Part shown: in pieces, positions 26,131 to 49,126 of the stretch
Position numbering within the stretch: the stretch's first letter is position 1
Layout: every line of letters starts with the position of its first letter
Assembly: GCA_964016885.1 (NCBI GenBank)
Contig: OZ024756.1
Location: 744,001 to 808,000 of the forward strand
Length of the DNA stretch: 64,000 nt
DNA from: Eledone cirrhosa
Taxonomy: Eukaryota
Direction of reading: 5' to 3'
Program-made: the position numbers and the translations under genes
Notes under the pieces: generated by a model
Databases searched by the model: none
What the model saw: only the letters and a program-made list of their open reading frames with translations
What the model was told of the DNA's origin: nothing

Positions 26131-26700
26131 TAATATAATGAAACGAAATTTCATTTCTCACTCTTAGTACGGCACTTACTTAAATGTAAGTATGTATGTA
26201 TACGTACATACATATATGTATACAGACGTACAGTAGCATGCATATATATATATATATACATACAGGTACACATATATATATGTACGTATCAGTTTAGCGG
26301 ACGTTTATTATAACGCCCGCTTTGTCCGTTTGTAAACAAGCGGACAGCCTGATTTATGCCGTACGGTGTTAAGGCAACCACGTCACCTTTTTGTTCAACA
26401 CTGACACAGGAACGATGTACTAGTTTCAAGCTTCTTAGCTATCATCAGCACCGTATACCCTTCTGCCAGATAGTTGAACGTTCGAAAGTATATACTTTCC
26501 TTATGAAAATTAACGGCTGAGCAGCCTAATTTGCATATCGAGTGAGTTCGGCCAGGCATACCGAAAACGATAAGTTGTAATACAATGAAACGAAATTTCA
26601 TTTCTCACTCTTAGTACGGCACTTACTTAAATGTAAGTATGTATGTATACGTACATACATATATGTATACAGACGTACAGTAGCATGCATATATATATAT
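26131..26700 (-). mobile_element. Hammerhead repeat family 2: one 447-bp monomer plus partial second monomer
   Basis: About 120-bp direct repeat 26131/26578; internal hammerhead. Confidence 0.75.
26412..26454 (-). ncRNA. Type I hammerhead ribozyme
   Basis: acggtg CTGATGA tagct-aaga-agctt GAAA ctag TA/catcgt. Confidence 0.75.
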
Positions 26701-27044
26701 ATATATGTGAATTGAAAAATAAAGAGAATCGAAATGGAATAGAAATAAAAAGTGAAATATCCAAATCTTCTGTGCTTATCAACAGGAATCCAGTAAAATT
26801 AGTACATCTCACATCAAAAATTTTGCAGGTCTGACTACACGTGTGTAGCCAGGCCAAACTAGCCGTCTCGCATTCACGGTGCTAGAAATAACAGCCGTTT
26901 ATGCGGGATTAAAGATCAGCTCTACAGAAAAGGAGCAATATACTATATTATATTTTGAGAATAAACACTCAATCGTTTACAATAATTAAGCTCCAGGAAA
27001 AGGGACTTTTCCGAGCAGTTAAATACATTAAAATATATGATAAA

Positions 27045-27402
27045 CACGAAACGTGTTTACATTGCAACGACCCAGCGTAAATGTGTTGAGAGAGAAACTG
27101 TGTCTGAGAGGGATAGAATGTAGTGTACGGGAGAGGAGACTGAGGTGGTATGAACATGTGATGCGCATGGAGGATGACCGATGGGTGAAGAAGTGCCAGG
27201 AAATGCCAGTTGAAGGAAGACGTGGTAGAGGTAGACCACGAAAAACATGGGCGGAGGTGGTGAGAACAGACCTCAGATCATTGAAGTTCACGGTGGAGAT
27301 GACGAGGGACCGTGACGAGTGGAGAGATGCTGTGCTGAATAAGACCCGTTCCACCCTTGCAAGCAGGGAAAAGCGGACGTAAAATGATGATGATGATGAT
27401 GA
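27045..27402 (+). mobile_element. RTE family C 3' fragment
   Basis: RERRLRWYEHVMRM...GRGRPRKTW, (GAT)n tail. Confidence 0.9.
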
Positions 27403-27417
27403 AGATATATATATATA

Positions 27418-47495: not shown

Positions 47496-47872
47496 AAATA
47501 AAGGTCTCAAACCAGCGTTCTAAATATCTTGCCAAGCCATGCTGACAGGAAATAGTATAGAGTATCTGTTCTATCTCTAATGTCAAAGAGTTAAAATTAG
47601 CTGGATAAAGAGTAGTCTCCCTTTAAAAGGGGTTTGTTTAGGGTTTTTTTTTTATATATACATGCCTGTTTAAGTGTGTGGGAGAATGCATGAAGGTGTA
47701 AGTATGTGAGTGTGTGTGTGTGAGTGTGAGAAGATAAGTCTATTCGTAAATGTGGGGGATAGGTGTTATCTGGTGTTAGAACTGGTTTTGTGTGTGTATG
47801 TGTGAGAGAGAATAAGTGGAGGTGTAAGCGTGTGTGTGTATGGGGTGTGTAGATATGGGGCTAGAAGCCCTA

Positions 47873-48743
47873 TCAGGTTATAAATTGGGTGTTGCGTTGT
47901 AGTCTATTATTGATTGGTGGTTGTGTTTTATCTATAATTAGTGCTTCCTTAATTCTAAGATTGCCGAGGTTTCTTTCCTTAGTTTCTATCCTAACTGTTA
48001 TGGTTTTGTCAGTGTTTTTGCATTTAACTAAGTGTTTCTTAAATGAGGAAGCGTTAGTATTGAGGTGTTCTTTTATTCTTATGTGGAGTGGTCTGGTGGT
48101 GCTACCTACGTAGAAGTTGTTGCATTTGTCACACTCTAGTCTGTATACGACGTAAGCCTGGTGGCATAGGTCTGTGTCGTTGATGGGGCAGTTGGCTAGT
48201 CTGCAGCAGTTGTCATGTCTGGTGGAGTGTCTTTTGGTTAGCTGTCCGCGTAGAGAAGGACCTGAGTGGGCCAGTTGGATATCTAGTCCCTCTCGTCTGA
48301 TGGCTCTGCGGATGGCTGTTGTTGTTTCTTCACTGAAGTGTGGGAGCTTCAGGAAGCAAGTGTTAGTGCCTCAGGTGTGGTGTCCTCTGTTCTTTCTGGC
48401 ACGGTTTGTGGTGGATGTCGTGTATCCGTTCAGTTTGAGTACTTCCAGGAAATGTGTGGTGTGTGTGTCTCGGTCTCTAGCGTCGGTGCATTTGTTCCGG
48501 ATACGTGCCAGTTCGTTCCTTATGTATCCGAACTTGGCACCGAGTGGGAGGGCCGATCTGAAATGTACGAACAGGTCCCTGCTGGCGGCTTTTTTATAGA
48601 AGCAGGTGTGGATGTTGCCTTCCTCTGTTACCCTGAGTTGGAAGTCCAGTAGGGATAGGGATCCGCGGTCATCGGGGTGTTCCATGCTGAACTTTATTCT
48701 GGCGTCCATGCTGGAGAATGTTGTGTATATTTTATCTGCCTCC
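47873..48743 (-). pseudogene. PLE RT thumb + GIY-YIG endonuclease, one in-frame TGA at 48371-48373
   Basis: IKFSME..SLSLLD, FYKK..FVHFRSALP; VVYRLECDKCNNFYVGSTTRPLHIRIKEH...LRIKEALII...IN. Confidence 0.85.
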
Positions 48744-49084
48744 TATCAAAAATTTACACCTACCAACATGCTTCAAATCACCAGGCCTCAAACGATCACT
48801 TAGTTACATACAAAAATTCTGCCTAAGAAAACTCATACAACACCTACATACACCGCATGCTACAACATCACATACGGACTATTTCCAGCCTTGTACCACA
48901 ACTCGCTGAAACCCCAGAACCTCTGTCCAGGTCATCTCCGCCACTATAGACAGGTCATACCACCATCGCCGAGACAACATCGTCAGTGGTGCTATTCTTT
49001 CCTCCCGTTACATTGTATTTTCTACGCCATCTTAATACAATAAAATATAAAATAAAATACAATGTAACGGGAGGAAACAATAGC

Positions 49085-49126
49085 ACCACTGACGATTTTG
49101 CAGATGTGCAACGAAAGAACTTTGAT
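49085..49126 (+). ncRNA. Degenerate minimal hammerhead
   Basis: acca CTGACGA tt-ttgca-gatg-tgcaa-c GAAA; inverted partial copy at 48979-49021. Confidence 0.4.

Follow-up and report, generated by a model that had tools for sequence, protein, structure and literature searches.

The genome of Eledone cirrhosa (3.0 Gb) contains three types of short hammerhead ribozyme repeats, families A, B and C, which on the features examined are non-coding hammerhead tandems of the metazoan non-LTR retrozyme kind. The evidence strongly favors the view that A, B and C are retrozymes moved by a Penelope-like element (PLE). The overall reading, in which retrozymes with two fixed 3′ ends are copied by a PLE while families A and C bear a putative U6-type promoter, is probable.

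Repeat Units, Hammerheads and Genomic Copies

The window, that is, the whole stretch of 64,000 nt that was analyzed, has a GC content of 33% and is packed with (TA)n arrays. Masked self-comparison and the sequence itself revealed monomers which, numbered from the predicted cut, comprise 447 nt in family A, 539 nt in family B and 466/467 nt in family C, at a GC content of 36–38% (Table 1). Unit length differs among genomic copies, with spacings of 456–538 for A and 539–555 for B. The repeat units and hammerheads described in a sequence-only reading of the window were present where it had placed them, and the unit structure was confirmed. Its three families hold as three unit types of 447, 539 and 466/467 bp; however, A and C are homologous (66% over 257 nt), so that there are two lineages instead of three. 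Both B loci sit in a tandem duplication of approximately 3.9 kb and are thus one duplicated insertion. The units are non-coding, the longest ATG frames of the window copies being 68 (A), 122 (B) and 50 (C) codons. Circular folds of the units compared with 25 shuffles each gave z values of −10.0 (A), −5.7 (B) and −12.6 (C).

The hammerhead of family C is of the canonical type I with a 7-bp stem I, a 5-bp stem II, an ACUAGU stem III and a GUC or GUU cleavage site; four such hammerheads lie in the window. The hammerhead of family B has a long stem II opening with a C.A pair, a 4-bp stem I, a GUU site and ACUA(A/G)UUAGU as stem III. The Rfam comparison proposed in the sequence-only reading supported family C by a match to Hammerhead_HH9 (38.9 bits, E 9.3e-9), which is under the gathering score of 52, and family A by a weak match (18.1 bits, E 0.055); for family B no hammerhead match was found in Rfam. 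The same reading had described one CUGAUGA hammerhead per monomer; in each B insertion of the window, one core of the two reads CUGGUGA. A G-C pair is missing at the stem II base of A and B, and the cleavage site is GUU in the majority of C and B copies. Consequently, cleavage may be weak. Cleavage as dimers has been described for metazoan hammerheads (PMC4209133), and since a 6-nt palindrome is unable to close a normal hairpin, dimer cleavage would be expected here. In a 2026 preprint 8 of 9 retrozyme dimers failed to cleave (10.64898/2026.07.22.740005).

Table 1: Features of the hammerhead insertions and neighboring elements, in window coordinates.
Feature	Position	Strand	Remarks
Family A retrozyme insertion	26137..26705	−	~1.27 units of 447 bp; terminates at long 3′ end in (TA)n
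Family A type I hammerhead	26413..26453	−	U.U base of stem II, ACUAGU stem III, GUA site; predicted cut after 26418
Family A promoter-like block	26489..26537	−	TATGCAAATTAG at 26526-26537; TATA box ~26489-26494
Family B insertion, copy 1	33698..34680	−	Minus arm to ~34549, 5′ part rearranged; (TA)n; then 68-bp inverted arm 34612-34680
Family B hammerhead, copy 1, intact core	33756..33835	−	Predicted cut after 33760
Family B second core, copy 1	34295-34374		Reads CUGGUGA
Family B insertion, copy 2	37668..38642	−	99.9% identical to copy 1; hammerheads 37726-37805 and 38265-38344
Family C insertion	39547..40504	+	~2.05 units of 466 bp
Hammerheads of C insertion 39547..40504	39706-39750, 40172-40216	+	Predicted cuts after 39743 and 40209
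Promoter-like motifs of C insertion 39547..40504	39612-39623, 40078-40089	+	
Family C two-armed insertion	45417..46468		Minus arm with short 3′ end at 45417; inverted plus arm 46207-46468 bears the tail
Minus arm of C two-armed insertion	45644-45688, 46111-46155 (hammerheads); 45771-45782 (motif)	−	
Broken LINE (RT) fragment	42922..45276	+	Between both C insertions; unrelated passenger
Broken Penelope-like element (PLE)	47299..48978	−	3′ RT part and GIY-YIG frames 47873-48742
Other parts of this PLE	47460-47495; 47299-47338; 48744-48978		Own hammerhead; 39-bp tail; inverted 5′ piece

Several further elements were observed in the window. At 34479–34680 the start of family B forms a perfect 68-bp palindrome centered on (TA)n; it begins about 5 nt ahead of the predicted cut site. 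An inverted hammerhead-like pair with CUGAAGA cores (60587, minus; 60847, plus) and a long stem II at 60540–60960 is probably another PLE-type two-armed insertion. At 48975–49370 a CUGACGA...GAAA element with an inverted arm directly abuts the inverted part of the PLE; that copy revealed no partner for stem I. A short repeat family of ~450 bp lacking a hammerhead core lies in (TA)n at 16361–19005, 31724–31937 and 35540–35753. An intact LINE frame of 1,040 codons (endonuclease, RT, PHD finger) occupies 51260–54382 and has a 99.9% identical inverted copy at 62309–64000. Window-wide Rfam matches were discarded, as miRNA look-alikes dominate among the 150 of 578 listed.

Genomic copies were counted by exact 23–24-mers from the unit flanks. 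The genome copy number check called for by the sequence-only reading gave 15,917 exact matches for A, 6,716 for C and 1,250 for B, with 0 matches for each reversed-pattern control. Arrays reach about 31 units in C, 6 in A and 5 in B, and dimers occur inside the window. The core was intact in 98 of 99 contexts for C, 73 of 81 for A and 59 of 77 for B; these contexts stem from fetched copies nearly all on contig C1, many of them from shared arrays. Of the 99 contexts for C, 60 have A-U and 39 have U-A at one particular stem II pair, both positions of which vary in run X1 as well. In family B a stem II G-C pair is changed to A-U in 2 of 66 contexts. Among the 6,146 run X1 contigs of family A, N7 was the sole core position varying at 5% or more. 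Thus, the cores are kept across copies with compensatory stem changes, in agreement with the sequence-only reading. As judged from the copies compared, the compensatory changes and the restriction of core variation to N7 point to selection on an active fold. Family C also appeared as a single unitig (495 or 497 nt) in runs X4 and X6 (organisms B and C; the kind of run is not on record). A tandem and a circle yield an identical unitig, and these unitigs were therefore discarded as evidence for a circle. Run X4 yielded no contig on family A, which carries no weight.

Insertion Footprint and Penelope-Like Elements

Of the regions analyzed, 38 were fetched because of the families they contained, either A, B or C insertions that were multi-copy or two-armed or other families bearing the motif, and not by end type. 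In 135 of the 153 arms (A 41/51, B 57/63, C 37/39) the 3′ end was located at one of two sites that are fixed in each family. These sites correspond to unit positions 227–238 and 277–295 in A, 62–65 and 176–184 in B, and 227–233 and 296–303 in C, and at each of them a short T/A stretch matches the (TA)n flank. The 5′ ends of the 153 arms are scattered, with no clustering at the predicted transcription start site; arms are inverted, and the targets are (TA)n. Two-armed insertions pair one long with one short 3′ end in 32 of 34 cases (p ~7e-8 versus 0.5), both exceptions being the duplicated B insertion of the window. One C array extends over 14.6 kb and terminates in a short end on one side and a long end on the other, as would result from one long reverse-transcription event or from later expansion. 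A cut site is crossed upstream by 43 of 51 arms in A, 35 of 39 in C and 55 of 63 in B, where the search anchor favors this outcome. Since most arms run upstream past the cut site, the template was apparently a circle or an uncut multimer and not a linear cut monomer.

Two internal RT start sites delimit the tail of PLEs (PMC11167929), and a tail at one end only together with an inverted arm is among their reported features (PMC8557442). The paired fixed 3′ ends of the retrozymes are such a tail footprint, and thus a PLE reverse transcriptase very likely mobilizes A, B and C. Family B exhibits the same footprint despite having no promoter-like motif. The sequence-only reading had mentioned neither this footprint nor the U6-type motif upstream of the A and C hammerheads. 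The suggestion of the sequence-only reading that non-autonomous hammerhead tandems are moved by some PLE is therefore supported by the paired fixed 3′ ends, the inverted arms and the (TA)n targets. Its more specific proposal, a local system with the PLE at 47297–48743 as mobilizer, is not supported: this copy is broken, and masked self-comparison and comparison of tails and termini revealed no sequence common with A, B or C. The element is 5′-truncated, a stop separates its RT-end and GIY-YIG frames, and it carries an inverted 5′ piece. Its tail of 39 bp is a footprint of the same type as in the retrozymes. The family of this PLE is young, with at least 150 matches at 95–100% identity and open frames up to 905 codons; the DKG and CCHH motifs are present and the Neptune CX2-5CxxC linker is absent. 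As all these elements use (TA)n, PLE neighbors are common.

The genome holds 10,595 GIY-YIG candidates, and the terminal comparison covered 35 loci of the window PLE family and 50 GIY-YIG loci of about seven families. None of the PLE terminal repeats compared was homologous to A, B or C. Several Neptune-type PLE families are present in the genome; in one of them the hammerhead has the architecture seen in A (U.U base, 4-bp stem II, palindromic ACCGGU, GUA site). A 9-mer is common to the tails of A, C and one Neptune-type family and is a weak lead only. A 30-nt match of B to PLE locus L284 was rejected as due to chance; it is AT-rich and lies upstream of the hammerhead of that PLE. Head-to-head joins of an A arm and a PLE arm, which were found once with the window PLE family and once with a Neptune-type family, were likewise rejected as partner evidence: they are long plus long and short plus short and consequently name no partner. 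In the Neptune-type family L213, L242–L271 (1,075 pattern matches) the hammerhead has U3-A8 in place of C3-G8, a covariation reported before (PMC4209133). PLE terminal sequence fused to the 5′ end of a retrozyme arm with no (TA)n spacer was observed at L065:1040–1720, L098:509–1190 and L336:700–1260; these joins are possibly mixed-template insertions.

The Promoter-Like Block of Families A and C

Upstream of the hammerhead, families A and C carry the motif TATGCAAATTAG followed by a TATA box, which reads TATATA in A, TATAA in C and TATATA in the further family E. The motif of A and C is identical over 12 bp to that of U6 locus L032 and of the tRNA-Sec loci L300/L301. The host consensus TATG(C/G)(A/T)AAT(T/G)AG is located at −77 to −80 of U6, U6atac, RNase MRP and two tRNA-Sec genes. 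Among the 19 U6 matches listed, it is present in four, comprising two single genes and the C19 cluster; 14 dispersed U6 copies, which are likely pseudogenes, and one interrupted cluster copy are without it. It was also detected in one of six U6atac matches, in the single MRP match and in both tRNA-Sec genes. The motif is missing from the 125–130 nt upstream of 14 U2 and 8 U1 loci, and it is missing at the RNase P match, at four 7SL loci and at the 7SK match. The small-RNA promoters of the host form two classes. In class 1 (L031–L034, L169, L170, L300, L301; U6, U6atac, MRP, tRNA-Sec) the octamer-like motif at ~−78 is combined with a TATA box at −30. Class 2 (L103–L114, L131–L138, L211, L305; U1, U2, RNase P and 7SK matches) has a TCAGT box at ~−56 to −64. 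Family B contains no such octamer-like motif. A U1/U2/7SK-type ATCAGT box in B was considered and rejected, as it is a single match and is lost in another B subfamily.

Motif, TATA box and core in this order occur 26,647 times in the genome, compared with 1 in the control. A variant of the motif with ATGAG (1,687 matches) uncovers more families. Additional hammerhead families with the same promoter-like motif were observed on C1 (L184, L335–L337, L346–L357, L376–L378), namely family E (unit ~320 bp, AUGCAU stem III), the older family F (3-bp stem III, 89 exact core matches) and older groups related to A. Families E and F have just the motif in common with one another, and neither has a blastn match to A or C. 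Family F was chosen by its hammerhead core alone; only 4 of its 12 copies have an intact motif. The distance from motif to TATA box is 43–44 nt in 47 of 60 retrozyme contexts versus 47–49 nt in host genes, that is, 4–5 nt shorter; in insect U6 promoters this spacing is tightly kept (PMC1761439). Six of 7 host promoters continue with CCT after the motif; this CCT is not kept in the retrozymes. T-runs occur inside the units, with two T5 and two T4 in C, two T4 in the A unit of the window and T6–T7 in 74 of 99 A matches, in which overlapping loci are counted repeatedly. With such runs of T4–T7, Pol III should stop before the full monomer is completed. The invariance of motif and TATA box in run X1 is not significant, since 26 of 346 positions vary (~0.25). 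Weighing motif, TATA box and host genes by their sequences, we lean slightly toward the motif of A and C working as a promoter.

Alternative Readings, Proposed Cycle and Known Systems

The elements could be PLE-moved retrozymes in which the octamer/TATA block is an inherited hairpin or a protein site and RNA arises by read-through from host DNA. The block indeed forms one arm of a hairpin in A, C and E, its motif-to-TATA spacing departs from that of host genes, and family B spreads without it. However, in roughly half of the A contigs of run X1 variation is seen in the opposite arm of the hairpin but not in the motif, motif and TATA distance persist across families with unrelated spacers, and the chance of a motif match within one 450-nt unit is only ~6e-4. 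We regard this explanation as unlikely. A promoter remains the preferred reading, acting either via leaky Pol III or via a Pol II complex that would use the same factor. A second alternative concerns the template: the ribozyme would hardly cut, an uncut multimer would be copied without monomer or circle, and arrays would grow by unequal crossing over. It would agree with the lack of a 5′-end pile-up at the cut site (ends within 8 nt in C 0/39, A 3/51, B 8/63), with the non-standard stem II bases of A and B and with an in vitro study in which hammerhead cleavage was dispensable for insertion and unprocessed RNA was the main insertion substrate (PMC11167929). The signs of selection on an active fold given above argue against it, as does an axolotl retrozyme which has the same U.U mismatch, cleaves and gives circles (PMC7229834). 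We regard the uncut multimer as somewhat less likely still than the inherited block.

The third alternative denies that the units are independent elements and takes them as terminal repeats (pLTRs), solo or in tandem, that coding PLEs have shed. Xenopus retrozymes resemble pLTRs according to the 2026 preprint (10.64898/2026.07.22.740005), and stem II of family B contains an ATG, as in the anole PLE, with a frame of 122 codons in the window copy. This frame is shorter than 100 codons in all 50 of the 50 other B copies. The sequence-only reading had named fixed termini of a longer coding element as the outcome that would speak against it; the sampled segments speak against such an origin, as PLE coding matches occur in only 4 of 82 segments with A, B or C. 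Furthermore, none of six PLE-retrozyme contacts in 126 segments is a same-direction PLE frame entering a unit without (TA)n, and pure arrays of ~31 units exist. Shed pLTRs are thus improbable, and independent retrozymes moved by a PLE remain the favored reading.

On this basis we propose the following cycle. Transcription would start ~40–60 nt before the hammerhead and continue through the next unit. Two hammerheads would then pair via the palindromic stem III and cut. The resulting monomer would be permuted with the promoter now in its 3′ part, and it would likely be ligated to a circle. Such a circular RNA intermediate is predicted with modest confidence. A PLE protein would nick (TA)n, and reverse transcription would be primed at one of two internal sites located 60–300 nt beyond the cut site. 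Partial tandems, inverted arms and long arrays would all follow from such copying, whether the template is the circle or an uncut multimer. As cleavage by the hammerhead permutes the transcript, a promoter in the 3′ part of monomer or circle would survive retrotransposition. To our knowledge, linear SINEs with upstream promoters cannot keep them through retrotransposition. More tentatively, and with somewhat more doubt than conviction, a ribozyme superfamily of at least 26,000 units may have captured a host external U6-type promoter, its circle being copied by the PLE protein from two fixed internal sites.

The promoter of the schistosome Smα element is of the gene-internal A/B-box type, whereas an upstream octamer-like motif plus TATA box is present here. 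Smα resembles the retrozymes in that a promoter, apparently for Pol III, stands ahead of the hammerhead; tandem copies are required because cleavage leaves the promoter at the 3′ end (PMC6765202). Newt satellite 2 is likewise a hammerhead tandem with an internal snRNA-type promoter (Coats 1994, via PMC2220036, PMC6765202). That promoter was reported as Pol II, while the motif described here matches the host U6/tRNA-Sec class and not U1/U2. With the metazoan non-LTR retrozymes the units have in common non-coding tandems with one type I hammerhead per unit, a short palindromic helix III, a GC content below 45% and high self-pairing, and the U.U stem II base of family A recurs in the active axolotl HHR_Amex2 (PMC7229834). 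They are longer (447–550 nt versus ~170–400) and are known here from DNA alone. PLEs were proposed as mobilizers in that study (Cervera and de la Pena 2020), the available parts of which do not report the paired fixed 3′ ends and the promoter motif mapped here.

Li, Clavereau and Pollet (2026; 10.64898/2026.07.22.740005) reached the same conclusion of PLE dependence, and the present units lie within their range of 51–972 bp. Their evidence is co-occurrence and pLTR homology in Xenopus, whereas ours is the insertion footprint, with no homologous pLTR among the loci sampled. Two internal RT starts defining a tail, an inverted 5′-truncated arm and AT-rich or (TA)n targets are likewise described for anole Poseidon (Frangieh et al. 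2024, PMC11167929) and for PLEs (Craig et al. 2021, PMC8557442). The tails of the retrozymes are ~60 (A), 70 (C) and 120 bp (B) versus 30–40 bp in PLEs, and no coding frame is present here. In the literature searched we found neither a PLE tail footprint on retrozymes nor a U6/tRNA-Sec-type upstream motif in retrozymes. Octopus and cephalopod publications yielded no description of such families, although the supplements of PMC7229834, PMC4209133, PMC8557442 and the 2026 preprint may list cephalopod hammerheads.

The transcription of animal retrozymes and the enzyme that mobilizes them are stated as open questions in the literature available to us. For both questions this genome supplies candidate answers: putative RT start sites were mapped in all three families, and a possible promoter was delimited by comparison with host genes. 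The mapped candidate sites can be used with the published in vitro PLE assay, and a consensus of the host U6-class promoter was obtained as a by-product. In E. cirrhosa, tens of thousands of ribozyme units and promoter-like motifs have been seeded in (TA)n arrays. If the motif of families A and C is a promoter, it would let these retrozymes bring their own promoter.
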